A DNA stretch of 17,862 nucleotides from Thermotogota bacterium (GCA_051748045.1 JBNJGY010000019.1:17295-35156), one strand, 5' to 3'; positions 1,653 through 17,157 are shown, numbered from the stretch's first letter. The notes: generated from the sequence alone by a model not told the origin. Program-made: numbers and translations.

Positions 1653-2302
1653 TGGATAATAAAATAAAAATTGCTCAAAGAGTAGCTCAAGAATTAAAAG
1701 ATGGAGATTTGGTTAATTTAGGAATTGGACTTCCTACTCTTGTTACTAATTATATCCCTGATGGAGTTGAAGTAACATTTCAATCAGAAAACGGAATGGT
1801 TGGAATGGGAAGATCTCCAGAAGAAGGATTTGAAAATAAAGACCTTACAAATGCAGGAGGAATGTATGCTACTGCAAATCCCGGTGCGATGTATTTTGAT
1901 AGTGCATTTTCTTTTGCTTTAATAAGAGGAGGACACCTCGATATTACTGTTTTAGGTGGTTTACAAGTAGATGAAAAAGGTCATTTGGCTAATTGGATGG
2001 TTCCTGGTAAAAAAATCCCAGGGATGGGTGGAGCTATGGATTTAGTAACTGGGGCTAAAAAAGTTATTGTAGCTATGACTCATACAGCAAAAGGAACACC
2101 AAAAATTGTTAAAGAATGTGATTTGCCATTAACTTCAATCAGAAAAGTTGATCTTATAGTTACTGAAATGTGTGTTATTGAACCTACTGACGAAGGCCTT
2201 GTATTAAAAGAAATAGCAGCTGATTATACTATTGATGATGTTAAAAATAATACATCAGCTCATTTGATTATCCCTGAAGATGTAAAAATGATGGGAGAAT
2301 AA
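1652..2302 (+). CDS. atoA: Butyrate:acetoacetate CoA-transferase subunit B
   Basis: Motifs [14 protein letters not shown] (catalytic Glu), IRGGHLD and [13 protein letters not shown] stop/start overlap with atoD. Confidence 0.93.
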
Positions 2303-2303
2303 G

Positions 2304-2362
2304 AGAAATTGTTTACAATTTCTGTTTGAAGATGGATGTTGGAAGTTGGAAGTAAAAACGTT
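2304..2362 (+). repeat. Hairpin + 4-heptad repeat module, copy A (between atoA and kal)
   Basis: AGAAATTGT-TT-ACAATTTCT followed by GTTTGAA GATGGAT GTTGGAA GTTGGAA GTAAAAACGTT; related copies at 8362, 11189 and inverted at 11430-11473. Confidence 0.85.
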
Positions 2363-2393
2363 CTAAACAACTAAAATAGAGGAGGTTTTAATA

Positions 2394-2780
2394 ATGAATG
2401 AAGTCATGATTAGAGTTAGAATGTCACAAGCAGAAGCTCATTATGGTGGCAACTTAGTCGATGGAGCTAAAATGCTTCAATATTTTGGTGATGTAGCTAC
2501 TGAATTGTTAATAAGAAATGATGGAGATGAAGGTCTTTTTAGAGCTTATGATAGTGTCGAATTTTTAGCTCCTGTTTACGCAGGTGATTATATAGAGGTA
2601 GTTGGAAAAATTGTAAAAAAAGGAAATACATCAAGGAAAATGGAATTTGAAGCAAGAAAAGTTATTAAACCAAGACCAGATATTTCAGATTCTGCAGCAG
2701 AAGTTTTAGATGAACCAATTATTGTTGCAAAAGCTTCTGGAACATGTGTAGTACCTTTAGACAAACAAAGAGGTGTTTAA
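2394..2780 (+). CDS. kal: 3-aminobutyryl-CoA ammonia lyase (hotdog fold)
   Basis: [35 protein letters not shown] and [19 protein letters not shown]; operon context. Confidence 0.93.
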
Positions 2781-2781
2781 C

Positions 2782-3591
2782 ATGGAAAAACTTATTATAA
2801 CTGCAGCAGTAACAGGTGCAGAAGTTACAAGGGATTTGCAACCAAATCTTCCTTTGACACCTGAAGAAATCGCAGAAGAAGCTTATAATTGTTATAAAGC
2901 AGGTGCATCTATTATACATGTGCATGCAAGAGATGAAGAAGGTAAACCAACACAGGGTTATGAATATTATAAAAAGATTAAAGAAGCTGTAGAAAATAAA
3001 TGTAATGTTATTTTTCAACCATCTACCGGTGGTGCAACTTGGCACTCTTTTGAAGAAAGAATGCAGCCATTGAAATTAAATCCTGAAATGGCAACATTAT
3101 CAGCTGGTACCAGCAATTTCGGTGATGATGTTTTTATGAACACTAATGAATACATTGAAAAATTTGCGCAAGAAATGTTGGATAGAAATGTAAAACCCGA
3201 AATAGAAGTTTTTGAAAGAGGCATGATTAAAAATGCTTTGACTTTTGTGAAAAAAGGTTTATTAAAAACCCCTTTACATTTTGACTTTGTTTTAGGCGTT
3301 CCTGGAGCATGTCCTGGCGAAATTGAAGATTTAGTATATATGGTTGATAAAATTCCTTCTGATGCAACTTGGACTGTTGCTGGAATAGGAAGGTATGAAC
3401 TACCTCTTGCAATGCATGCTATTGCTATGGGAGGGCATGTTAGAGTTGGTTTTGAAGATAATATATATTTCAAAAAAGGTGAAAAAGCAAAATCGAATGC
3501 TCAACTAGTTGAAAGGGTAGCTAATTTAGCAAAAGAATATGGAAGAGACATAGCAACACCAGATGAAGCAAGAAAAATTCTTAATATTTGA
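2782..3591 (+). CDS. kce: 3-keto-5-aminohexanoate cleavage enzyme (BKACE family)
   Basis: MEKLIITAAVTGAE, HVHAR zinc ligands, STGG and GGHVRVGFEDN; ATG at 2782 follows GAGGTG. Confidence 0.93.
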   Translation: MEKLIITAAVTGAEVTRDLQPNLPLTPEEIAEEAYNCYKAGASIIHVHARDEEGKPTQGYEYYKKIKEAVENKCNVIFQPSTGGATWHSFEERMQPLKLNPEMATLSAGTSNFGDDVFMNTNEYIEKFAQEMLDRNVKPEIEVFERGMIKNALTFVKKGLLKTPLHFDFVLGVPGACPGEIEDLVYMVDKIPSDATWTVAGIGRYELPLAMHAIAMGGHVRVGFEDNIYFKKGEKAKSNAQLVERVANLAKEYGRDIATPDEARKILNI

Positions 3592-3611
3592 AGTATAAGG
3601 GAGGAAAATAA

Positions 3612-4646
3612 ATGAAAAAAGGAAATCCATTTGGAACTCATAGAGTTATTCAGCCTGAAGGTGCTTTACCTCAACCAGCAAAAAAAATTGACAACACTAT
3701 GGAAATCTATTCAAATGAAATCTTAATAGATGTTCAAACACTAAACGTAGATTCAGCAAGTTTCACGCAGATCAAAAATGCATGTGATTCTGATGAAACA
3801 AAAATAGCAAATATGATAAATGACATTGTAAGTGAAAAGGGGAAATTACAAAATCCAGTTACGGGTTCTGGAGGAATGCTTATTGGAACAATTAAAGAAA
3901 TTGGTCCAGATTTTCCAGACCAAAGTTTGAAGGTTGGAGATAAAATCGCCACGTTAGTTTCTCTTTCTTTGACACCTTTAAAAATAGATGAAATAATTAA
4001 AGTAAATAAAGGTACTGACCAAGTAGACATCAAAGGTCAAGCTATATTATTTGAAAGTGGTCTTTATGCAGTTTTACCTGAAGATATTTCAGAAAAACTG
4101 GCTCTAGCGGTACTTGATGTAGCAGGAGCTCCTGCCCAAGTAGACAAGTTAGTAGAAAAAGATCAATCAGTTTGTATTATAGGTGGTGGAGGTAAGTCAG
4201 GGATTCTATGTACTTATCAAGCAAAGAAAAAAGCAGGACCAGATGGAAAAGTAATTGTAATTGAATATTCCGAAGAAAATGCTAAGAGAATAGAAAATAT
4301 GGGTATTGCTGATGAAGTTATTATTGCGAACGCTACAAAACCTGTAACTATTTATGAAAAAATAAATGATATCACAAATGGAGATTTATGTGATGTTGTT
4401 ATAAATAATGTGAATGTTGAAGAAACAGAGATGTCTTCAATTTTAATAACTAAAGATGATGGTATTGTTTACTTCTTTTCTATGGCGACATCTTTCACAA
4501 GAGCAGCTCTTGGAGCTGAAGGTGTTGGAAAAGATATTAATATGATCATTGGTAATGGATATACTAAAGGACATGCTGATTTGAGTTTACAAATAATAAG
4601 AGAATCAAAACAAATCAGAGAATTATTTGAAAAATTGTACATATAA
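3612..4646 (+). CDS. kdd: L-erythro-3,5-diaminohexanoate dehydrogenase
   Basis: GTHRVIQPEGALPQPA, NPVTGSGGML, LVSLSLTPL, LDVAGAPAQ and FFSMATSF signatures. Confidence 0.93.
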   Translation: MKKGNPFGTHRVIQPEGALPQPAKKIDNTMEIYSNEILIDVQTLNVDSASFTQIKNACDSDETKIANMINDIVSEKGKLQNPVTGSGGMLIGTIKEIGPDFPDQSLKVGDKIATLVSLSLTPLKIDEIIKVNKGTDQVDIKGQAILFESGLYAVLPEDISEKLALAVLDVAGAPAQVDKLVEKDQSVCIIGGGGKSGILCTYQAKKKAGPDGKVIVIEYSEENAKRIENMGIADEVIIANATKPVTIYEKINDITNGDLCDVVINNVNVEETEMSSILITKDDGIVYFFSMATSFTRAALGAEGVGKDINMIIGNGYTKGHADLSLQIIRESKQIRELFEKLYI

Positions 4647-4663
4647 TATAGGAGGTTTTTTGA

Positions 4664-5944
4664 TTGAGAAGTTTTAAAGATATACCTTTATATAAAGATG
4701 TTACTCAAGAACAATGGAACGATTGGAAATGGCAATTACAAAATAGAATCACAGATGTCGAAACTCTAAAAAAAGTAATAAATCTAACTGATGAAGAGGA
4801 AGAGGGAATAAGAAATACTCTAAAAACTCTAAGGATGGCAATTACTCCTTATTATGCATCTTTAATAGATCCTAATGATCCTAAAGATCCTATAAGAAGA
4901 CAAGCAGTTCCAACAAGTAAAGAATTAAAAGTAGATAGATGGGATATGTTAGATCCTCTTCACGAAGACGCTGATTCACCAGTTCCTGGATTAACTCATA
5001 GGTATCCAGATAGAGTATTATTTTTAATAACAGATATGTGTTCTATGTATTGTAGACATTGTACAAGAAGAAGATTTGCAGGGCAAAAAGATGGTGCAAG
5101 AACAAGAGCAGAAATAGATAAAGCAATTGAATATATCAGAGAAACCCCACAAGTTAGAGATGTTCTTCTTTCTGGAGGAGATGCTTTATTAGCAGGAACT
5201 CCGATGTTAGATTATATTTTAACTGAACTTAGGAAGATAGAACATGTTGAAATAATAAGAATTGGTAGTAGAGCTCCTGTAGTTATGCCGCAAATAGTAA
5301 CAGATGAATTATTAGATGTTTTGAAAAAACATCATCCTATATGGATCAATACACATTTTAACCATCCAAATGAAATCACACCTGAATCGACTGAAGCATG
5401 TGAAAAAATGGCAAATATAGGAATACCTCTTGGTAATCAAAGTGTTTTATTAAAGGGTGTAAATGATAGTCCTTATTTAATGATGGAATTAGTTCACCAA
5501 CTAACAAAAATAAGAGTTAGACCATATTATATTTACCAATGTGATCTTTCTCAAGGTATAGCACATTTTAGAACTTCTGTTAGAAAGGGACTTGGTATTA
5601 TGGAAAGCCTTATAGGACATACATCAGGTTATGCAGTTCCAACATTCGTTGTAGATGCTCCTGGTGGTGGAGGGAAAATAAGACTTATGCCACAGTATCT
5701 TGTTTCTGAATCAGATGGCGCTGTTATTCTTAGAAATTATGAAGGTGTAATAACTACCTACCATGAACCAGAAGATGTTAAAACAGATGTAGATGATGAA
5801 AAATATAGAAAAAAATATCAGCTAAAAGGTGTTGCAGGTCTTTTTGAAGGTGGGCAGGTTAGTATGGAGCCTGAAAGTCTTGAAAGAGGAGAAAGAATTA
5901 AAGAATGGAAAGAAAAACATAAGGAAGACTTAAAAGATTTATAA
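4664..5944 (+). CDS. kamA: L-lysine 2,3-aminomutase (radical SAM, PLP)
   Basis: CSMYCRHC radical SAM motif, [17 protein letters not shown] and VDAPGGGGK (PLP lysine); TTG start after GGAGG. Confidence 0.96.
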
Positions 5945-6945
5945 TGAATTTCATAGATAATTTGATGAATTTTGAGACTCTTTCTGTAGTCGGACTTGAA
6001 AAAAACACTGGGAAAACAGAAACGATGAATTATATAATTAGCCATCTAAAAGATAAGATAACAATTGGTATTACTTCAATAGGTGTAGATGGAGAAACTA
6101 ATGATATAGTTACCAAGACAAAAAAACCTGAGATAACAGTATATGAAAATATGTTTTTTGCAACTACAGAAAAACATTTTAAACTCAAAAAAATCAACGC
6201 TGAAATATTTTATTTAAGTAGAAGAGAAACACCACTTGGAAGAATTTTAATTGCTAAGTCTAATGAAGAGGGGCGGATATTGTTATCCGGCCCTTCTACA
6301 TCAAATTGGCTTAAAGAAATTATGTCTGAAATGTATAATTTAGATAAGATGAAAATAATTGTTGATGGAGCCTTATCAAGAGTTTCTTCATCTTCTCCTT
6401 CTATTACAGAATCAGTTATTCTTTCTACTGGGGCGGCTTTATCTCTCTCTACTAAAAGTATAATAGATAAAACAGTTTACAAAATTAAATTAATGAATAT
6501 TGAAAGTATTGATGATAAACTGTTTTATGTATTAAAAAGTTTGGAAAATGGAATTTATTCTTTAAATGATGAGATAAAAAAACTTCCATATAAAACACTT
6601 TTATCTATAAAAAATGTAGACTTAGATAAATATGGATATACCTATTATTTAACAGGTGTTTTGAGCAATAATTTTGTAAAAAAAATATTGAGTAAAAAGT
6701 GTGTTGAAAAATATACTATTATAGTAAAAGATTATACAAAAATATTTTTAGATAGAAATACATATAATAATTTTATTAAATTAGGTGGAAAAATAAAAGT
6801 ATTACAAAAAGTAGATTTAAAAGCAGTTACATATAATCCAATTAGTCCAGAAGGTTTTGTTATAGATTCAAAAATGATTATGGAAAGTATTAAAGAAAAA
6901 ACTGGAGTAACAGTAATCGATGTAAAAAAGGATTTGATACTATGA
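5944..6945 (+). CDS. kamB: KamB-like accessory protein (putative lysine 5,6-aminomutase reactivase subunit)
   Basis: N-terminal P-loop-like GLEKNTGKT, TSIGVDGE and VDGALSR; position between kamA and the MutS-like gene. Confidence 0.8.
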   Translation: MNFIDNLMNFETLSVVGLEKNTGKTETMNYIISHLKDKITIGITSIGVDGETNDIVTKTKKPEITVYENMFFATTEKHFKLKKINAEIFYLSRRETPLGRILIAKSNEEGRILLSGPSTSNWLKEIMSEMYNLDKMKIIVDGALSRVSSSSPSITESVILSTGAALSLSTKSIIDKTVYKIKLMNIESIDDKLFYVLKSLENGIYSLNDEIKKLPYKTLLSIKNVDLDKYGYTYYLTGVLSNNFVKKILSKKCVEKYTIIVKDYTKIFLDRNTYNNFIKLGGKIKVLQKVDLKAVTYNPISPEGFVIDSKMIMESIKEKTGVTVIDVKKDLIL

Positions 6946-8312
6946 GAGAATTGTTAAAAAAAACTGATGCTGATTACATTTTGAACCAAATGGAATTTTG
7001 CTCTAATATGGGCAAAAAATATTTTCAAAAAATAAAGAAAGGTTTAAATTTAAAAGAAGTTGAAGAACAACTTGAACTAACTTCTATGTTTTTTTGTATT
7101 TTTGAAAATGAAAATGAAATAATTAAATATTTTAAATCTGCTATATCACACATAAATGACATTGAAAATACACTCTTGAATCTAAATTCAAAAAAAATAT
7201 TAGACGAAATTGAAATGTTTGAAATAAAAAATTTTTTATACTTTTCAATGAGAGTACAAAAAAAATTGAATAAAGAGTTCTACCAAATATATTTTGAAAA
7301 TCCTCATGATATTTTCTCAATACTAGATCCTCAAAATAAAGAGATACATAGTTTTTTTGTTTATGATGAATATTCTGAGAAACTAAAAACAATAAGAAAT
7401 CAAAAAAAAGAATATCAAAAAAAGGATTTAACAGAAAATCCAGAATACATAGATATTATTAGAAAAGAAAAAGAAGAGGAATATAAAATAAAAAAAAATT
7501 TAACTGAGAAATTAAAATTACATTCAAAAGAACTTATAAATATATTTAATAAGATAGCTATTTTGGATTTTTTAATTGCTAAATCTGAAATAATAGAAAA
7601 GTATAATTTGGTAAAACCTATTTTAAAAAATAAAATAAAACTAGAGAAAATATTCAATCCAAAAGTATTGGATATTCATGTTAGTAATAAGAAAAGGTAT
7701 CAAAGGATAGACTTTGAATTAGAAGATAAACCAACTATTATAACTGGTTCTAACATGTCTGGAAAAACTCTATCTACCAAAACAATAGCTTTAATATCTG
7801 TTCTTTTAAAACTTGGGTTTTACGTTCCCGCTGAAAAAGCTGAATTAAAATATTTTGAAACTATTTATTATTTATCAGGTGATCTGGGAGCTAATGATAA
7901 AGGCCTTTCAAGTTATGCTGGAGAGATTAAATATATAAATAAATCTTTTGTAGAAGCACAAAAAAACAAAGAAATTTTAATTGTTCTTGATGAACCAGCA
8001 AGAACAACCAATCCGAAAGAAGGAACTGCCATTATAGAAGCACTTATTAGTGAACTACATTCAAAAAAATGTAGTCTTTTAATAACAACACATTATCCAA
8101 ATATAATAGCAAAAAATGCAAAAAAAATGAGAGTAAAAGGATTGATGAAAGATAGAATAGGTGAAATTAATGAAAATAATATTAATGATTTTATAGATTA
8201 TTCTTTTGTAGAAGATGAAAAAGCTAATATTCCAGAAGAAGCTATAACTATTGCTGAGATTCTTGGTGTTGATGAGGTGCTTATAAAAACCGCTAGAAAA
8301 TTTTTAGGCTAA
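6942..8312 (+). CDS. kamC: KamC-like MutS-family ATPase (putative lysine 5,6-aminomutase reactivase ATPase)
   Basis: Walker A GSNMSGKT, GLSSYAGE, LDEPARTTNPKEG and TTHY; no mismatch-binding domain; operon context. Confidence 0.8.
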   Translation: MRELLKKTDADYILNQMEFCSNMGKKYFQKIKKGLNLKEVEEQLELTSMFFCIFENENEIIKYFKSAISHINDIENTLLNLNSKKILDEIEMFEIKNFLYFSMRVQKKLNKEFYQIYFENPHDIFSILDPQNKEIHSFFVYDEYSEKLKTIRNQKKEYQKKDLTENPEYIDIIRKEKEEEYKIKKNLTEKLKLHSKELINIFNKIAILDFLIAKSEIIEKYNLVKPILKNKIKLEKIFNPKVLDIHVSNKKRYQRIDFELEDKPTIITGSNMSGKTLSTKTIALISVLLKLGFYVPAEKAELKYFETIYYLSGDLGANDKGLSSYAGEIKYINKSFVEAQKNKEILIVLDEPARTTNPKEGTAIIEALISELHSKKCSLLITTHYPNIIAKNAKKMRVKGLMKDRIGEINENNINDFIDYSFVEDEKANIPEEAITIAEILGVDEVLIKTARKFLG

Positions 8313-8324
8313 TTTTTTTATAGA

Positions 8325-8571
8325 AAATAATAAATAGAGCTCTTCACAAGTTCGAAAGGGTAGAAATCATTTCATGATTTCTGTTGAGTGTTTATGGTTG
8401 GAAGTTGGAAGTAAAAAACGTTATTAAAAATAGCCATAGCTGTCATTTCGACTAAGATGCGTAGCATCGCATAGAGAAATCCCATCAGTAAATTTCACAA
8501 AGTGAAATTAAGCTTTTAAAACAATTCAATTTTCTACGAAAATTTACTGAATAGATGTCTCGACATGACAG
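8325..8571 (+). repeat. Composite intergenic repeat, copy 1 (hairpin-heptad module + TGTCA...TGACA palindromic element)
   Basis: Aligns to 11152-11408 at offset 2827; only 3 substitutions over about 8379-8564, plus a 10-nt indel near the 3' end. Confidence 0.92.
8440..8571. mobile_element. TGTC/CGTC-type REP- or MITE-like palindromic element
   Basis: Ends CTGTCAT...ATGACAG; nested arms GAGAAATC/GATGTCTC and TCAGTAAATTT/AAATTTACTGA; internal triloop hairpins. Confidence 0.7.
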
Positions 8572-8747
8572 TTGTAATAACTTATAACTCATGCTTTTAC
8601 TAACAATAATATAAATTTTTGTACTATAACTCTTAATAGTTCATCGCATCTATTTATTATTTCATTATAAAAATCAACAACTAACTTCAAGAAAAAATCA
8701 ACAATAAAATTACAAAATAATTTTTTATATAAAAAGGAGTGATTTAA

Positions 8748-10304
8748 TTGAGTAAATTAGGGATAGATTGGTCTCTTGTTGAAAAAGCAAGAGGGTATGC
8801 TTCCAATATAGCAAACAGTGTTAGTCAATATGTACAAGACTATTCAACAGTCTCAGTTGAAAGAACTATTTGTAGATTTTTAGGTATAGATGGAATAAAT
8901 GAAGAAGATATTCCTTTGCCAAATATTGTAGTAGATCATATGAAGCAAAAGAATATTTTAATAAATGGTGCAGCTTATAACATAGGAAATGCTATGATAG
9001 AATTAGATATTACTCCTCAAGAGATTGCAGAAAAAGTTGCAAAAGGTGACATAGATTTGTCAAAAATAACTCCTCATAATTCTGAAGAATCCCTAAAGAT
9101 GATAGAACCTATAATAAATTCAACAATTGAGAAAATAAAAGAAAACAAAAAATACAGAGATGATTTTGTCGAAAACATTGGTGAAGGAACACAACCTTAT
9201 TTATATGTTATTGTTGCAACTGGAAATGTTTATGAAGACGTTGTTCAAGCAAAAGCAGCTGCTAGACAAGGCGCAGATATTATAGCTGTTATAAGATCAA
9301 CAGGGCAGTCTTTATTAGATTTTGTTCCTTATGGACCAACGACAGAAGGTTTCGGTGGAACGTTTGCCACACAAGAGAATTTCAAAATAATGAGAGAAGC
9401 TCTTGATGAAGTAGGACATGAGCTTGGAAGATATATAAGGCTTGTAAATTATGCTTCTGGACTTTGTATGCCAGAAATTGCAGCGATGGGCGCTGTAGAA
9501 AGATTAGATGTAATGCTTAATGATGCATTATATGGTATATTATTTAGAGATATAAACATGAAAAGAACTATAATAGATCAACATTTTTCAAGAGTTATAA
9601 ACGGTTTTGCAGGAATAATTATCAATACTGGAGAAGATAATTATTTAACAACAGCAGATGCTTATGAACAAGCTCACACTGTTTTAGCCTCTGATTTCAT
9701 AAACGAACAAATGGCTTTAACAGCAGGGATTCCTAAATCCCAGATGGGTTTAGGACATGCTTTTGAAATGGATCCTGATATGGAAAACGGGTTTCTATAT
9801 GAACTAGCACAAGCACAATTAGTAAGAGATATCTTCCCCGAAGCAACTCCAAAATATATGCCTCCAACAAAATTCATGACGGGAAATATTTTCAAAGGTA
9901 ATATTCAAGACGCATTATTTAATGAAGTTTCTATTTGGACAAAACAAGGGATTCAACTTTTAGGTATGATAACAGAAGCTATTCACACACCTTTCATGTC
10001 TGATAGGTATATTGCAATTGAAAATGCAAAATACATTTTTAATAATATGAAAAACATAGGTGATGAAGTAGAGTTCAAAGATGATGGGATAATTCAAAAT
10101 AGGGCAAAACAAGTATTGAATGAATCACTCACACTTCTTGAAACTATAGAAAAAGAAGGATTATTTGATTCGCTTGAAAAAGGCGTTTTTGCAGATGTAA
10201 AAAGACCTATAAATGGTGGGAAAGGTTTAGATGGCGTTTTTGAAAAAGGGAAGAACTATATGAATCCTTTCATTGAAAAAATGTTGGGAGATGATGTTAA
10301 ATGA
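8748..10304 (+). CDS. kamD: Lysine 5,6-aminomutase alpha subunit
   Basis: STVSVERT, YVIVATGNVYEDV, IRSTGQSLLD, NYASGLCMPEI and KYMPPTK; TTG start after AGGAG. Confidence 0.95.
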   Translation: MSKLGIDWSLVEKARGYASNIANSVSQYVQDYSTVSVERTICRFLGIDGINEEDIPLPNIVVDHMKQKNILINGAAYNIGNAMIELDITPQEIAEKVAKGDIDLSKITPHNSEESLKMIEPIINSTIEKIKENKKYRDDFVENIGEGTQPYLYVIVATGNVYEDVVQAKAAARQGADIIAVIRSTGQSLLDFVPYGPTTEGFGGTFATQENFKIMREALDEVGHELGRYIRLVNYASGLCMPEIAAMGAVERLDVMLNDALYGILFRDINMKRTIIDQHFSRVINGFAGIIINTGEDNYLTTADAYEQAHTVLASDFINEQMALTAGIPKSQMGLGHAFEMDPDMENGFLYELAQAQLVRDIFPEATPKYMPPTKFMTGNIFKGNIQDALFNEVSIWTKQGIQLLGMITEAIHTPFMSDRYIAIENAKYIFNNMKNIGDEVEFKDDGIIQNRAKQVLNESLTLLETIEKEGLFDSLEKGVFADVKRPINGGKGLDGVFEKGKNYMNPFIEKMLGDDVK

Positions 10305-11083
10305 GTGGAGGACAATACGATACAAACAAAAGAGAATATGACAAAACATTAGATTTGACAAAAGTGAAACCATATGGTGATACCATGAACGATGGAAAAA
10401 TTCAAATTTCTTTTACTCTTCCTGTTCCTTGTGGTGATGAAGCGGTAGAAGCAGCGAAAATTACAATGAAAAAAATGGGGCTACAAAACCCCCAAATTGT
10501 TTTTTATAAAGAGTTGACAAAAGGTTTTACTTTTTTCAATGGATATGGAGAGTTCACTGATACAGTTAATTTTGAAGAAATTCATGTTCCAAAAGTAAAA
10601 ATAGATAAAATGGATATGGAAGAAACAGATGAGTATATAAAAGAAAATATAGGAAGAAAAATAGTAGTAATAGGTGCAAGCACAGGAACAGATGCACATA
10701 CTGTAGGAATAGATGCAATAATGAATATGAAAGGGTTTGCTGGTCATTATGGTCTTGAAAGATATGAAATGATTGATGCTTATAATCTTGGTAGCCAAGT
10801 AGAAAATGAGGATTTTGTTGCAAAAGCGGTAGAATTAAATGCAGATGTTTTATTAGTGTCTCAAACAGTTACTCAAAAAAACATCCATGTAAAAAATCTA
10901 ACAGAATTAGTAGAATTATTAGAAGCAGAAGGATTAAGAGATAAAGTAATTCTCATAGCAGGTGGACCGCGAATATCTCATGAGCTTGTAAAGGAAATAG
11001 GTTATGACGCAGGCTTTGGGCCAAATACTTTTGCAGATGATGTAGCAAGTTATATAGCAAAAGAAATGAACAATAGAAAATAA
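10301..11083 (+). CDS. kamE: Lysine 5,6-aminomutase beta subunit (cobalamin/PLP binding)
   Basis: KPYGDTMNDG, B12-binding DAHTVG (DxHxxG), MNMKG (PLP lysine), SQTVTQ, GGPRI and GYDAGFG. Confidence 0.95.
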   Translation: MSGGQYDTNKREYDKTLDLTKVKPYGDTMNDGKIQISFTLPVPCGDEAVEAAKITMKKMGLQNPQIVFYKELTKGFTFFNGYGEFTDTVNFEEIHVPKVKIDKMDMEETDEYIKENIGRKIVVIGASTGTDAHTVGIDAIMNMKGFAGHYGLERYEMIDAYNLGSQVENEDFVAKAVELNADVLLVSQTVTQKNIHVKNLTELVELLEAEGLRDKVILIAGGPRISHELVKEIGYDAGFGPNTFADDVASYIAKEMNNRK

Positions 11084-11094
11084 ATATAAAATAT

Positions 11095-11130
11095 AGCCTG
11101 ACTTTTAAAAGTCAGGCTTTTTAGTTTTTT
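11095..11130 (+). terminator. Rho-independent terminator of the kam operon
   Basis: Perfect palindrome AGCCTGACTTTTAAAAGTCAGGCT followed by T tracts, 11 nt after the kamE stop. Confidence 0.85.
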
Positions 11131-11151
11131 ATGATTATTCAAAAATTTTTT

Positions 11152-11408
11152 AAATAATAAATAGCACTCTTCACAAGATCGAAAAAGTAGAAAATGTAAA
11201 ACATTTTCTGTTGAGTGTTTATGGTTGGAAGTTGGAAGTAAAAAACGTTATTAAAAATAGCTATAGCTGTCATTTCGACTAAGATGCGTAGCATCGCATG
11301 GAGAAATCCCATCAGTAAATTTCACAAAGTGAAATTAAGCTTTTAAAACAATTCAATTTTCTACGAAAATTTACTGAATAAATGTCTCGACCAAGCTCGA
11401 CATGACAG
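11152..11408 (+). repeat. Composite intergenic repeat, copy 2
   Basis: Direct repeat of 8325-8571 with an extra CAAGCTCGAC; the inner element has ends GCTGTCAT (11266-11273) and ATGACAGC (11402-11409). Confidence 0.92.
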
Positions 11409-11429
11409 CAGTAAAGGTTTTTAGCTCTT

Positions 11430-11473
11430 GTTTTTACTTCCAACCTCCAACATCCATCTTCCAACAGAAATCA
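11430..11473 (-). repeat. Inverted heptad module
   Basis: The reverse complement TGATTTCT GTTGGAA GATGGAT GTTGGAG GTTGGAA GTAAAAAC is nearly identical to 2319-2359. Confidence 0.85.
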
Positions 11474-11475
11474 CC

Positions 11476-11578
11476 TGTCACCCTGAGCATCGTCGAAGGG
11501 TCTGGATTTATAAATTTGCGAAGCAAATTGAAAAGGTTTTAGATTCTTCAGCTCCAAAAATCGTCGTTCAGAATGACA
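11476..11578. mobile_element. Second, sequence-distinct TGTCA...TGACA REP-like element
   Basis: TGTCACCCTGAGCATCGTCGAAGGGTCT ... AATTTGC-GAA-GCAAATT ... AGATTCTTCAG...TTCAGAATGACA; same architecture as the 8440 and 11267 elements. Confidence 0.7.
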
Positions 11579-11640
11579 AGATACTTATCTATCTAATAAT
11601 GTATTAAAGATATATTTCGGAATTGTTTTATAGAATTTTT

Positions 11641-13847: not shown

Positions 13848-13932
13848 AGTGTTACCATTAAATAGTACGTGAGACAAATAAAATATCAAAAAGGCAGGTG
13901 AAAACCCGTTGAGTAAATATAGCGGGGAAAAT

Positions 13933-14292
13933 ATGGGAGATTATCATGAATCATATGATGCTTTAGATGAACAAACAAGAAATTTCACAAGAGCTTTAAA
14001 CAGTTTTAAAGAAGAAATTGAAGCTGTAGATTGGTATAACCAAAGAGTTGCACTTGCTACTGATCCAGAATTAAAAGAAATAATGGCTCATAACAGAGAT
14101 GAAGAGATCGAACATGCAATTATGACTCTTGAATGGTTGAGAAGAAACATGCCAGGATGGGATGAAGAAATGAGAACTTATTTATTTAAACAAGGAAATA
14201 TAGCTCATTTAGAAGATGGAGAAGAAGATGGAGAAGAATCATCTAATGATTCAGGAGACGGTTCTTTAGGTCTTGGAAAAATGAATAAATAA
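13933..14292 (+). CDS. Encapsulin-associated ferritin-like protein (Flp/EncFtn cargo)
   Basis: YHE, EEIEAVDWYNQR and HNRDEEIEHA (EExxH ferroxidase motif), acidic linker and C-terminal targeting peptide GSLGLGKM. ATG 13933 fits the usual family N-terminus; TTG 13909 with an AGGTGA RBS is an alternative. Confidence 0.92.
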   Translation: MGDYHESYDALDEQTRNFTRALNSFKEEIEAVDWYNQRVALATDPELKEIMAHNRDEEIEHAIMTLEWLRRNMPGWDEEMRTYLFKQGNIAHLEDGEEDGEESSNDSGDGSLGLGKMNK

Positions 14293-14332
14293 AATAATAA
14301 CTTATATACTTTTTTTAAAGGAGGTATTTATA

Positions 14333-15121
14333 GTGGATGTGTTAAAAAGAAATTTAGCACCTATATCAGATGGTGTATGGAATGAAATAGATGATAGAGC
14401 AAAAGAAGTTTTTGAATCATATTTATCTGCAAGAAGAATAGTTGGGTTGAAAGGCCCTTTAGGGTTAAATTATACAGTGGTACCTGAAGGTAGAATAGGT
14501 CCTCATGATGAAAAAGATGGAGTAAAATACGGAATGTATAAAGTTAAACCTCTAGTAGAATCAAGAATAGAGTTTGAATTAGATAGATGGGAATTAGATA
14601 ATTTAGAAAGAGGTGCTGTTGATTTAGAATTGGATGATTTAGAAGAAGCTGTTAAAAAAACAGCTCTTTTTGAAGAAAATGCTATATATAACTCTTTAGA
14701 AAATGCTCAAATAGTTGGTTTACAAGAAGCTTCTGAAAATGAACCGATAGAAATAGGCGAATCAACTTCAGATATAATGGAAGCTGTAACAGATGGTTTA
14801 TTAAAATTAAAAGAATCATTTGTTGGGGATAATTATGTATTAGTTGTAGGACCAAAAGTATGGAAAAAAATCAACAAATTATCTGAAAATTACCCACTAA
14901 TGAGAAAATTAGAAGAAACTATTGGGAATAAAGTTATGTTCTCTCATGTACTTGAAGGAGCATTGTTATTACCAGTAGACCATGATGATTTAGAAATGAC
15001 TATTGGAAGAGATTTTTCAATTGGGTATCATTCTTCTACTGATAAAAAAGTTAAATTCTACATTATGGAAACTTTTACTTTCAGAGTATTAGATCCAGCT
15101 ATTATCGTAAAATTCAAATAA
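14333..15121 (+). CDS. Family 1 encapsulin shell protein (linocin M18 / maritimacin-like)
   Basis: LKRNLAPIS..W.EID..AKE, ARRIV...GPLG, FELDRWELDNLERG, GRDFSIGY and ETFTFRVLDPA; GTG start after GGAGG. Confidence 0.95.
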   Translation: MDVLKRNLAPISDGVWNEIDDRAKEVFESYLSARRIVGLKGPLGLNYTVVPEGRIGPHDEKDGVKYGMYKVKPLVESRIEFELDRWELDNLERGAVDLELDDLEEAVKKTALFEENAIYNSLENAQIVGLQEASENEPIEIGESTSDIMEAVTDGLLKLKESFVGDNYVLVVGPKVWKKINKLSENYPLMRKLEETIGNKVMFSHVLEGALLLPVDHDDLEMTIGRDFSIGYHSSTDKKVKFYIMETFTFRVLDPAIIVKFK

Positions 15122-15131
15122 TTAATAATTT

Positions 15132-15160
15132 AAAATCTCCCTTTAAAAAGGGAGATTTTT
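15132..15160. terminator. Bidirectional terminator between encapsulin and the ATPase gene
   Basis: AAAATCTCCCTTT-AA-AAAGGGAGATTTTT between convergent stop codons. Confidence 0.85.
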
Positions 15161-17157
15161 TAAATTAAATCATGTAAAGATATATTTTTATAATTAGATT
15201 GATATGGAGAAAGCACAATTCTTTCATTAAATTTTTCTTGCCATAATTTTTCGAATATTTTTTTAAATTTTTCAAAATTTTTGTTATGCTTCTCTAATTC
15301 TTCAGTGGTTAAAGAATCTTTTTCTATCTTTTTAAGCTTAATGTTTTTGATTATTTCGTATATTTCAGGGAAATGATTCAATTCAAAAGATAAATTCTCT
15401 ATAAAAATATTATATTTGTTAATTTCATTTTTTGATATATATATCTTTTTACTTTTAGTGGTTTTAATTTTTTCTTTTATATATGATAAAAAATCGTTTG
15501 GGAATTTTTTAATTTCTTTTGGTTTGTTTTTAGAATGAATTATTTTTGAATTTGAAAAAATATTCCTGATTTCTTTTGAGATTTGTTCTTTTAGCTCTTT
15601 TTCTAAATTTTCTAAAAATTTTATTATTTTATCATTTCTATCGTTTATATCTATATTTTTAATTGCATATAATTTTTTTGTGTACTCTTCTATTTCATTT
15701 GATTCCGCAAGTAATAAATATATTGAATTTTTGTTTTTTAAAGCTTGTCTTCGAAGTTTTATTTCATTTTCAGAATAAAAAATATCTAAATTATAATCTT
15801 TATTTTTATTAATCAGATTTATGTGGTTGAAAGAGATATTGAATATATTCAAATGTTTTTTATGAGAAATCAAAAAATCTTCAATTAATTCTACAGGGAA
15901 TAAAAATTCAGAATTCTTGGACTGTTTTTCTATATATTTTTGAATATTCATAATTTGTTCAGAAGAAATTCTTGCATGTTTATTTATTATAAATATTTTT
16001 TTGTTTTCTTTTAATTCTTTTAGTTGTTTTTTTGTTTTCTCATTTACTGATTCTATTTTTTCGTTTATTGAAGTATACATGAATTTATTTAAGATGTTTA
16101 TAGGAACACCATAATCTTTATAATAAAATTTTTCAAGGAGATATATTATTTTATAAAGATTATTTTCATTTGTTTCTTTATATAGAATATCAAATAAATC
16201 AGATAAAGTTACCCATTTATAAATTGGTTGATCAAGATATTTATCTTTAATTATTTTATGAATTGTATATATAAGTGTTCTGTTAGATAAATCGTTGTTA
16301 TTGTTCAGTATATTTATTATTAAATCTAATAGATAAGGCTGTATAGGATGATATTTTTGAAATAATAGTTTATTTTCTACGTCGTTATTTAGGTTATAAT
16401 TCATTTTTGTTTTTATATCTGGTGTTTTAAATATTATATTTTCAGAGTTTTCTTCATAAAATTTTTCAATTTCATTAGGATCTTTCTTTTTTAAAACTCT
16501 CTTTGAAAGTACTTCTTTTATATTGTAGTCATTGAAGGATATGTAGTAACTTATTCTATTTCTTATTAATTTTAAATTATCAATATTTTTGATACTGTTT
16601 TGAGTAATAAAGATAAAATTAATTGTTTTAGTTACTACTTCTGATGAATGTATTAACCCTTGTATTTCTAAAGATATATTTTTAATTTTTGAAAAAGATT
16701 CAATTTCATCAAAGACAATAACAACTTTTTTATTAGAGAATTTATTATTTATTTGTTTAAGAATTTCATCAGTGCTTTTTTTTGTTTCTCCTTTTAATAT
16801 TTTATTATTCAATATTTCAGTAAGACTATTGAAGTTTGTATGTAAAGATAGATCTATATTAATTATTTGTAAATTTGAATAAATATTATGTAGTTTTTTT
16901 GGTATATTTTTTGATTTTTGATTTTTATTTATATAGTTCAATATATTAATGAAATGAGATTTTCCTGTTCCATATTTACCATATATGTTTATACCTGTTT
17001 TGTTAGAATTTAAAGCTATTGCTAACTCTTCAAAATTTCTAATTACTTCATCTGTGAAGATGTAGTTTTTTATTAAGGGGTTTTTATCTTCAATTTTTAC
17101 TACATTTTCTGTTTGTTCTTCAAAATGAGACAGAATATCTTTAATTTTTAAAATCAT
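15160..17157 (-). CDS. P-loop ATPase resembling BREX BrxC/PglY (DUF6079/DUF499-like), 665 aa
   Basis: Walker A GKYGTGKSHF (aa 60-69), Walker B VVIVFDE, and ITQ, IKEVLSKRVLKK, YHPIQPY and RTLI in the order expected for BrxC-type ATPases; GGGGG RBS. Confidence 0.7.
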   Translation of the reverse strand: MILKIKDILSHFEEQTENVVKIEDKNPLIKNYIFTDEVIRNFEELAIALNSNKTGINIYGKYGTGKSHFINILNYINKNQKSKNIPKKLHNIYSNLQIINIDLSLHTNFNSLTEILNNKILKGETKKSTDEILKQINNKFSNKKVVIVFDEIESFSKIKNISLEIQGLIHSSEVVTKTINFIFITQNSIKNIDNLKLIRNRISYYISFNDYNIKEVLSKRVLKKKDPNEIEKFYEENSENIIFKTPDIKTKMNYNLNNDVENKLLFQKYHPIQPYLLDLIINILNNNNDLSNRTLIYTIHKIIKDKYLDQPIYKWVTLSDLFDILYKETNENNLYKIIYLLEKFYYKDYGVPINILNKFMYTSINEKIESVNEKTKKQLKELKENKKIFIINKHARISSEQIMNIQKYIEKQSKNSEFLFPVELIEDFLISHKKHLNIFNISFNHINLINKNKDYNLDIFYSENEIKLRRQALKNKNSIYLLLAESNEIEEYTKKLYAIKNIDINDRNDKIIKFLENLEKELKEQISKEIRNIFSNSKIIHSKNKPKEIKKFPNDFLSYIKEKIKTTKSKKIYISKNEINKYNIFIENLSFELNHFPEIYEIIKNIKLKKIEKDSLTTEELEKHNKNFEKFKKIFEKLWQEKFNERIVLSPYQSNYKNISLHDLI

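Follow-up and report, generated by a model that had tools for sequence, protein, structure and literature searches.

The 17,862-nt stretch of Thermotogota bacterium DNA analysed here (GCA_051748045.1, JBNJGY010000019.1:17295-35156; hereafter the window, with positions counted from its first letter) belongs to a 2.41-Mb genome (G000) assembled in 158 contigs with 28% G+C. The window carries a lysine-fermentation operon encoding CoA-transferase A/B, a thioesterase, a beta-keto acid cleavage enzyme, lysine 2,3-aminomutase and the alpha and beta subunits of D-lysine 5,6-aminomutase, together with arginyl-tRNA synthetase and an encapsulin pair. It also contains copies of a short module in which a small hairpin is followed directly by a tract of tandem 7-nt units (heptads) and an A-rich tail. 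The original prediction had placed four copies in the window, and their coordinates and sequences proved accurate; a fifth, degenerate copy (8674-8726) had been missed. The reading favoured here, and held to be rather probable, is that the module belongs, as one unit, to a family of mosaic repeats confined to the intergenic DNA of a single genus of uncultured Thermotogota and similar to repetitive extragenic palindromes (REPs) and to the bacterial interspersed mosaic elements (BIMEs) and REP doublets forming hairpins (REPINs) built from them.

Module 1 (2302-2366, plus strand) consists of the hairpin AGAAATTGT-TT-ACAATTTCT at 2304-2323, which begins 1 nt past the TAA stop codon (2300-2302) of the CoA-transferase B gene, followed by the heptads GTTTGAA GATGGAT GTTGGAA GTTGGAA at 2324-2351 and then by GTAAAAAC, with the tail GTAAAAACGTTCTAA; the covariance model R1, built from 30 of the modules found in G000 by nhmmer, matches it at 2302-2359 with 70.3 bits. 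Module 2 (8362-8424, plus strand) carries the hairpin AGAAATCAT-TTC-ATGATTTCT at 8362-8382, heptads at 8383-8410 and the tail GTAAAAAACGTTATT (R1 match 8360-8418, 74.6 bits), and module 3 (11189-11251, plus strand) carries the hairpin AGAAAATGT-AAA-ACATTTTCT at 11189-11209 and heptads at 11210-11237, then the tail (R1 match 11187-11245, 73.0 bits). Module 4 (11430-11473, minus strand) is inverted and comprises the tail and the heptads GTTGGAA GATGGAT GTTGGAG GTTGGAA, its hairpin being reduced to the 3' arm (..GATTTCT); R1 matches it at 11430-11482 with 44.9 bits. It forms a facing (convergent) pair with module 3 and is 95% complementary to module 1 over 42 nt. The degenerate fifth copy (8674-8726, minus strand) is the inverted partner of module 2 and adjoins the kamD ribosome-binding site. 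It retains inverted heptads (TCAACAACTAACTTCAAG) and, at its right end, the hairpin remnant AAAATTA-caaaa-TAATTTT; its ortholog in the sister species G005 is an intact right hairpin abutting the kamD ribosome-binding site.

Several further blocks accompany these modules. An upstream block, U2 (..aataaatag.gctcttcacaag.tcgaaag..; 8325-8361, plus strand), precedes the hairpin in one subfamily and recurs at other loci, and self-comparison of the window places a second copy at 11152-11188 (plus strand). An inner element of ~130 nt (8441-8570, unstranded) ends in inverted, TGTC-tagged REP-like hairpins (TGTCATTTCGAC.. / ..GTCTCGACATGACA; C19 25735+ and 25864-), and a second unstranded copy at 11268-11407, likewise with TGTC-tagged inverted ends, is 98% identical to 8441-8570. 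Additional TGTC-tagged REP-like hairpins stand at 11476-11505 (plus strand, TGTCACCCTGAGCATCGTCGAAGGGTC, detected by the genome-wide TGTC pattern) and at 11542-11578 (minus strand), the latter recognised by inspection and missed by the TGTC regular expression. The block aaaacaattccgaaatata at 11611-11630 (minus strand) forms, elsewhere in the genome, the left end of ~190-nt elements designated type A.

Copies 2 and 3 had been singled out earlier for three base pairs that covary between them. Their stems do differ and nevertheless pair, but the contrast is a mosaic of pre-existing alleles: the 187 nt following the two hairpins are 98% identical and the 42 nt preceding them 88% identical, and each hairpin allele recurs at other loci of the genome, accompanied by its own upstream variant. 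This recurrence identifies the contrast as an assembly of alleles already present, the right part having been homogenised, and rules out three fresh compensatory substitutions between the two copies.

An iterated nhmmer search finds 62 modules in G000, many of them at contig ends, and R1 matches 74 times in G000, 80 times in G005 and 7 times in G006, which confirms a dispersed multi-copy family with 62-74 copies in the genome under study. G005 (20 contigs, 99% complete, coding DNA ~80-85% identical to G000) and G006 (68% complete, the closest relative, at 86-91% identity) are sister species of the same genus. Across the order, modules were found in 3 of 51 genomes, all from 1 of 16 genera, and none was found in the 48 genomes of the 15 other genera. 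Within the family, R1 detects no module in the 9 other genera, for which the 150 best first-look candidates from each of 23 genomes were scored. An exact-pattern search recovers 8 metagenome loci and 2 loci of one metagenome-assembled genome (MAG), with 0 matches in viral contigs. In the Rfam comparison that had been proposed, the window gives 0 matches at the gathering score, and the two repeat regions give only chance-level matches at E up to 1.

The recurrent unit is ~72 nt long and runs from hairpin through heptads to (G)TAAAAAACATTGTT. On the 5' side of the heptads, 36 of 58 modules carry a perfect stem of at least 7 bp, versus 7.3% of 5000 random 30-nt intergenic windows, and 26 of 58 carry one of at least 9 bp, versus 2.6% of such windows. 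There are at least 13 different hairpin stems, in which the outer AGAAAT/ATTTCT is mostly constant while the inner 2-4 bp and the loop vary. The hairpin is AT-rich and its head is often GTAG (23 of 61 units in G000, 14 of 48 in G005 and 4 of 4 in G006) or ATAG (a further 4 units in G000 and 13 in G005), the AG belonging to the stem. At C66:2098-2179 in G000, the inner hairpin is swapped for the GC-rich palindrome GCCCC-ttcg-GGGGC, with the outer AAATT/AATTTCT retained.

The heptad core is GTTG followed by three variable bases, with GTTGGAA predominant in G000. Arrays of at least three heptads number 65 in G000 versus 9 in the reversed genome and contain four units in 30 cases, three in 26 and five in 9; of 43 parsed modules, 16 have 29 nt between hairpin and A-run, corresponding to four heptads, and 4 have 22 nt, corresponding to three. 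The tracts thus vary by whole units, in support of the earlier interpretation, whereas the claim of exactly four heptads survives as the mode of a distribution that spans 3-5 units in G000 and reaches ~20 in a relative. Specifically, at the sites orthologous to C32:19266 in G005 and in L113, a metagenome relative, four forward heptads are followed by ~20 inverted ones, and Tandem Repeats Finder assigns the L113 array a period of 7 and 19.9 copies. This expanded array (L113 242-383, G005 L060; top strand CCAGCAA/CCAACAA) lies between the hairpin-heptad unit and the ribosome-binding site of the next gene.

At a higher level, the units are assembled into dimers and mosaics. Paired heptad arrays are convergent in 8 cases and divergent in 0, with 2 of the 8 pairs more than 250 nt apart, and the dimers of ~150-190 nt consist of two facing units with hairpins outward and a spacer of 32-39 nt. 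The type A element (~190 nt) starts with a left block and hairpin 1, continues through forward heptads, a conserved spacer and inverted heptads, and closes with a second class of hairpin, AAAATAAATTAC-aaa-GTAATTTATTTT, which covaries too (TAC/GTA vs TGC/GCA); on either strand, these elements fold as a hairpin, a long imperfect stem and a hairpin. TGTC-tagged hairpins number 92 in G000 (88 intergenic) versus 2 in the reversed-genome control and follow within ~70 nt in 35 of 58 modules. Their 5-bp outer stems are variable and complementary (ATTTC/GAAAT, ATCCT/AGGAT, ATGTC/GACAT, ACCCT/AGGGT) and their tail is ..CATCAGTAAAT. Units combine with these hairpins and with other blocks into mosaics of several hundred bases. 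Module density is also high at G005 loci L067-L070, for example five units within 600 nt at L068 4860-5420, and accessory genes for AbiEii-like AAA_21, Fic/DOC, HEPN, PIN, HipA, MqsA and Rpn/YhgA-like proteins lie around the modules there.

The hairpin is maintained by compensatory change. In a MAFFT alignment of 30 modules (A2), 94.3% of cells are paired versus 86.5% after shuffling (0 of 500 shuffles as high), slid controls reach 43-57%, and both-sided change is seen in 5 of 9 pairs. For 116 distinct sequences from the three genomes and metagenome contigs, whose alignment was fitted to the covariance model and is hence biased towards pairing, the corresponding values are 95.8% versus 84.6%, with both-sided change in 9 of 9 pairs and 108 cells. 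Orthologous sites display the same behaviour. Upstream of kamD, two base pairs are exchanged between G000 and G005 (TGT/ACA vs CAT/ATG) with the hairpin still perfect; in the C53/C14 orthologs a 4-nt loss leaves a perfect 7-bp stem; and the C32 orthologs AGAAATC-aga and AGAAATTGTT-ttac are both perfect. The exchanged pairs include transversions (UA to AU in 8 cells, UA to CG in 22). G-U accounts for ~17 of 908 cells (~1.9%) versus 38 non-pairs, a share close to that from single mutations, and so indicates no preference for an RNA over a DNA hairpin. The earlier proposal that structure is under selection therefore stands insofar as compensatory changes keep the hairpin, but perfect pairing alone does not prove a selected RNA.

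The history of individual sites was reconstructed by comparing nine of them between G000 and G005. Both species carry modules at seven (the first two window sites, C53:5308, C27:17046, C32:19266, C17:12875 and C17:5342), and two are filled in G000 only, namely a ~450-nt composite after kamE and a 1-kb segment containing a gene that, from its sequence, we take to be NUDIX-like. In genus g6 both operon sites are empty, with spacers of roughly 10-12 nt. Sites that are empty in another genus and 2 of 9 filled in G000 only accord with the non-autonomous repeat behaviour originally proposed. Since most sites are common to two species, the family is old, and it is still reshuffling: at shared sites the hairpin position is retained and the heptads and downstream blocks are often replaced. 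At C27:17053-17241, a 189-nt segment specific to G000 sits beside a dimer that in G005 is simple, and a perfect 29-nt direct repeat of tail and heptads at the flanks of the segment is a hallmark of recombination, or of template switching, between modules. The halves of this dimer are 98.8% (81/82) and 95.6% (65/68) identical between the two species, compared with 97.2% for the adjacent tRNA gene and 76-83% for the flanks, a pattern of sequence conservation that suggests constraint on this copy. The conserved dimer (G000 C27:17001-17310; G005 C13, L084 7990-8320, L098) is located just upstream of the TTGACA/TATAAT promoter of the tRNA gene.

With respect to genes, 57 of the 62 modules in G000 are intergenic, and divergent promoter regions also hold modules. 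The 5' arm of the hairpin overlaps or lies within 5 nt of a co-directional stop codon in 15 of 62 modules versus 2% by random placement, and a TAG, TAA or TGA stop sometimes falls within the module stem; part of this excess would be expected if only insertions that spare the ribosome-binding site of the next gene survive. RNA evidence consists of contigs from small shares of three RNA-library runs (X1-X3), which are uninformative on transcript ends, strand and level. A 201-nt contig with zero differences covers 2331-2531, starting within the module 1 heptads and extending into the gene downstream, and may reflect DNA carry-over. Contigs on 11268-11444 show 7-9 differences and derive from other copies or relatives, and no contig in these shares covers 8223-8856. 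The run that yielded the zero-difference contig is labelled salt lake metagenome, which places the organism or a near-identical strain in that run.

These positional data bear on an alternative that seems unlikely, though less so than those discussed after it, in which the module is a cis element of mRNAs: a 3'-UTR or inter-cistronic hairpin at the stop codon would protect or end the message or modulate termination and re-initiation, heptads rich in GGA/GGAGG would offer a landing pad for CsrA or the ribosome, and dispersal would be secondary. Such a role is consistent with the co-directional placement of 12 of 14 modules in tandem-gene contexts, the stop-codon excess of 15 of 62, the RNA-library contig that runs from module 1 into the downstream gene (possibly DNA carry-over), and the one orthologous dimer as conserved as its neighbouring tRNA gene, as well as with a mean of 2.56 GGA per module in the G000 heptads and the presence of genes for CsrA and FliW in this genome, which also encodes the flagellar protein FlgL. 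However, 22 of 48 G005 modules lack any GGA and have the heptads GTTGTTG, GTTGTTA or GTTGTTT, and CsrA is encoded in 26 of 26 family genomes and is thus not specific to the 3 that bear modules. Moreover, a U-tract follows the hairpin on neither strand, G-U is not above expectation among single mismatches, modules also occupy divergent promoter regions, heptads and downstream blocks are replaced wholesale at orthologous sites, and gene orientation is confounded with replication direction. The covariation itself could in principle be a mutational by-product and uninformative on function, because intrastrand template switching in quasi-palindromes copies a change in one arm to the other. The near-exclusive Watson-Crick pairing with G-U at ~1.9% of cells, the many transversion pairs, the hairpins still perfect after indels and the GC-rich replacement of the inner stem at C66 would all fit this explanation, but the outer AGAAAT/ATTTCT and the position of the hairpin before the heptads are conserved in three species, which requires retention of the palindrome, and stems of at least 9 bp occur in just 2.6% of random intergenic windows. 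Template switching and selection are not mutually exclusive, and as a sufficient account of the differing stems the by-product explanation is very improbable.

Explanations that invoke a mobilising protein fare poorly, no candidate mobilising enzyme being found to co-occur with the modules. An improbable one is that the module forms the terminal inverted repeats of a miniature inverted-repeat transposable element (MITE) of the classical kind, cut and pasted or copied by a DDE or HUH transposase that is encoded elsewhere or lost. Facing pairs with outward hairpins and a 32-39-nt spacer do give ~150-190-nt units with defined ends, presence and absence differ among species and genera, and many assembly breaks fall at modules, but a target-site duplication is seen in no comparison. 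Self-BLAST of 2186 open reading frames (ORFs) yields 5 small paralogue clusters and no multi-copy transposase or insertion sequence, and the TnpB marker PF07282 is absent. A single Y1-transposase gene (Y1_Tnp; C82, L003 1444-2214) encodes a 256-aa protein with an HUH motif that resembles REP-associated tyrosine transposases (RAYTs); it is flanked near L003 1330 and 2305 by its own GC-rich 12-bp inverted repeats (GGGTCGGACCAA / TTGGTCCGACCC), not by modules, and PF01797 has zero matches in G005 and G006. The RAYT partner suggested in the original prediction is not supported, this gene having no flanking modules and no counterpart in either sister species. Di Nocera et al. (2013; PMC3733652) describe RAYT genes flanked by REPs or by unrelated inverted repeats ('TIRYT'), and the Y1 gene, which no other genome of the family has, is probably an element of the latter type that was acquired recently. 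Rpn/YhgA (PF04754) has 0 matches in G000 and 5 in G005, where the genes sit in module-dense islands, and it also occurs in genera without modules. The ORFs bracketed by inverted modules, considered as partners and rejected, are housekeeping genes or have no Pfam match; those on C17 match no Pfam family and look unrelated. Least probable of all, and hardly tenable, is the idea that the heptad tracts are the ends of a mobile unit with four-helix-bundle (23S rRNA IVP / Avd-like) or GIY-YIG genes. Heptad tracts exist, and beyond them the only support is the suggestion made in the original prediction, but none of the 26 family genomes, the three with modules among them, has a PF05635 match (0 of 26), and the GIY-YIG matches are just one 574-aa open frame, presumably UvrC, and one of 289 aa. 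The four-helix-bundle partner is refuted for this genus, barring a gene in unassembled sequence, and the GIY-YIG partner is not supported.

We therefore return to the REP/BIME/REPIN-like family as the preferred reading, which draws on features observed directly: copy number, intergenic location, compensatory upkeep of the palindrome, change by whole heptads, facing pairs, a range of one genus, age, and reshuffling at shared modules. In the dimers, the facing heptad arrays make a long imperfect stem. Under this reading, the palindrome would be retained through a need to fold, as single-stranded DNA or as RNA, and the heptads would act as slippage-prone homology arms. For the most part, units would spread and be reshuffled when modules recombine or templates switch between them, or else through some host enzyme acting in trans, with no part for a dedicated transposase encoded nearby. 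A more specific form of this proposal, which we offer only tentatively, is a REPIN-like replicator without a dedicated transposase, in which a REP palindrome is joined to a GTTGNNN microsatellite serving as a homology 'zipper' and some copies have been adopted by the host. Template switching or recombination at the heptads and tail would then let units spread, exchange partners and assemble into mosaics, the 189-nt insertion with its 29-nt repeat would represent one such event, and the dimer at the tRNA promoter and the hairpins on stop codons would be the host-adopted copies. An RNA-level or local regulatory role may still belong to some copies, as the orientation bias, the stop-codon placement and the one strongly conserved dimer point to it.

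Several results weigh against the preferred reading. The nine site comparisons reveal neither a target-site duplication nor a clean excision footprint, no movement was caught between near-identical strains, and G006 contigs end at repeats, so that filled and empty sites cannot be compared with that genome. The conservation of the C27 dimer is easier to reconcile with a selected function than with a repeat that is purely selfish, and in tandem-gene contexts 12 modules run along transcription and 2 opposite. No RAYT is associated with the modules, and all 25 other genomes of the family lack the Y1 gene. A GTAG head is present in 38% (G000) and 29% (G005) of units, whereas the available part of PMC3733652 reports an unpaired terminal GTAG in over 90% of GTAG-REP members, and that part describes no heptad tract for REPs. 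In addition, the family survey with R1 scored the 150 best first-look candidates per genome, and the intergenic fraction depends on crude ORF calls, by which 91% of G000 is coding.

The remaining genes of the window include an EncFtn-like gene followed by an encapsulin (Linocin_M18) shell gene at 13909-15121 and, at 15160-17157 on the strand opposite to this pair, a gene for a 665-aa AAA_22 protein. Within the lysine operon lie a 333-aa ORF without a Pfam match (5944-6945) and a gene for a 456-aa protein whose only domain match is MutS domain V (6942-8312); the two may form an aminomutase reactivase-like pair.

Few non-coding features are as common in bacterial genomes as REP-type repeats, and the spread and persistence of REPs without RAYTs is the question on which PMC3733652 closes for the CGTC type. 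The genus described here offers a compact case, with ~60-80 modular units per 2.2-2.4-Mb genome, two hairpin classes and a heptad tract. Its sites are mostly common to species yet rebuilt internally, and 2 of 3 genomes contain no Y1 transposase; it could be used to test recombination-driven repeat spread. The modules could also serve to test how a hairpin on a stop codon affects expression. They break short-read assemblies of these MAGs and could be developed as strain-typing markers.

Comparison with known systems places the module closest to REPs, with partial resemblances elsewhere. BOX, RUP and Correia elements are likewise non-coding, modular, intergenic and foldable and reach tens to hundreds of copies; the likeness is one of description, not of sequence, and here no target duplication or related insertion sequence was found. 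At the origins and ends recognised by HUH endonucleases in rolling-circle replicons, a hairpin adjoins short direct repeats, much as the hairpin of the module stands directly before a few phased repeats. This is a resemblance only, as the modules have no conserved loop for a nick site and no HUH protein is common to the module-bearing genomes. Of the features of MITEs, inverted ends are present, and a target-site duplication and related transposase were not found. The short tandemly repeated repetitive (STRR) sequences of cyanobacteria are heptanucleotides. By this definition they share with the modules tandem 7-nt units, an intergenic location, a variable number (3-5 here, ~20 in L113) and the absence of a known function, and they may be regarded as the nearest analogue of the heptad tract. 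They belong to another phylum and have another unit, and the array here is short, always attached to a hairpin and to an A-rich tail, and has an inverted array as its partner. The STRR name and the use of these sequences for fingerprinting appear in PMC5088731.

The REP comparison rests on PMC3733652, according to which REPs have stems of 6-13 bp and loops of 2-3 nt, include sub-families with alternative complementary stem residues, form head-to-head dimers 20-100 bp apart that are able to fold into a larger hairpin, and cluster into mosaics. They lie between unidirectional or convergent ORFs, within 20 bp of ORF 3' ends, and GTAG termini supply TAG stops. The modules share with GTAG-REPs, BIMEs and REPINs, so described, a short perfect intergenic palindrome in high copy (20-40 bp in REPs), stems and loops of the sizes given, alternative stems, head-to-head dimers and mosaics, and with GTAG-REPs also a location between unidirectional and convergent ORFs and near ORF 3' ends, a terminus that supplies the stop and long vertical persistence. 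The original prediction had named a match to a described family as a ground for giving up its claim, and in part such a match exists, the properties being those of REP families as published in that source. The differences are equally specific. The modules are AT-rich, each with a GTTGNNN tract and a conserved A-rich tail, and they occur in Thermotogota, where the same source, in the part available, reports just CGTC-type repeats. Two inverted units and a spacer (8 convergent, 0 divergent pairs; ~150-190-nt dimers) recall REPIN-RAYT systems, but no RAYT is flanked by the repeats and 2 of the 3 module-bearing genomes have no Y1 transposase at all. PMC3733652 also describes CGTC/TGTC-tagged REPs without a dedicated transposase, including CGTC-3 in the Thermotogae K. 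olearia and M. prima, and these resemble the companion hairpins in having a TGTC tag followed by A and T/C, complementary variable stems and no dedicated transposase, the comparison being by description and not by consensus. This likeness concerns the neighbouring sub-module and not the hairpin-heptad unit itself, of which no description was found in literature outside subscription journals. Relative to known REPs, then, the unit has neither the near-constant GTAG tag nor a cognate RAYT, and what it adds to the REP palindrome is an expandable heptad arm.

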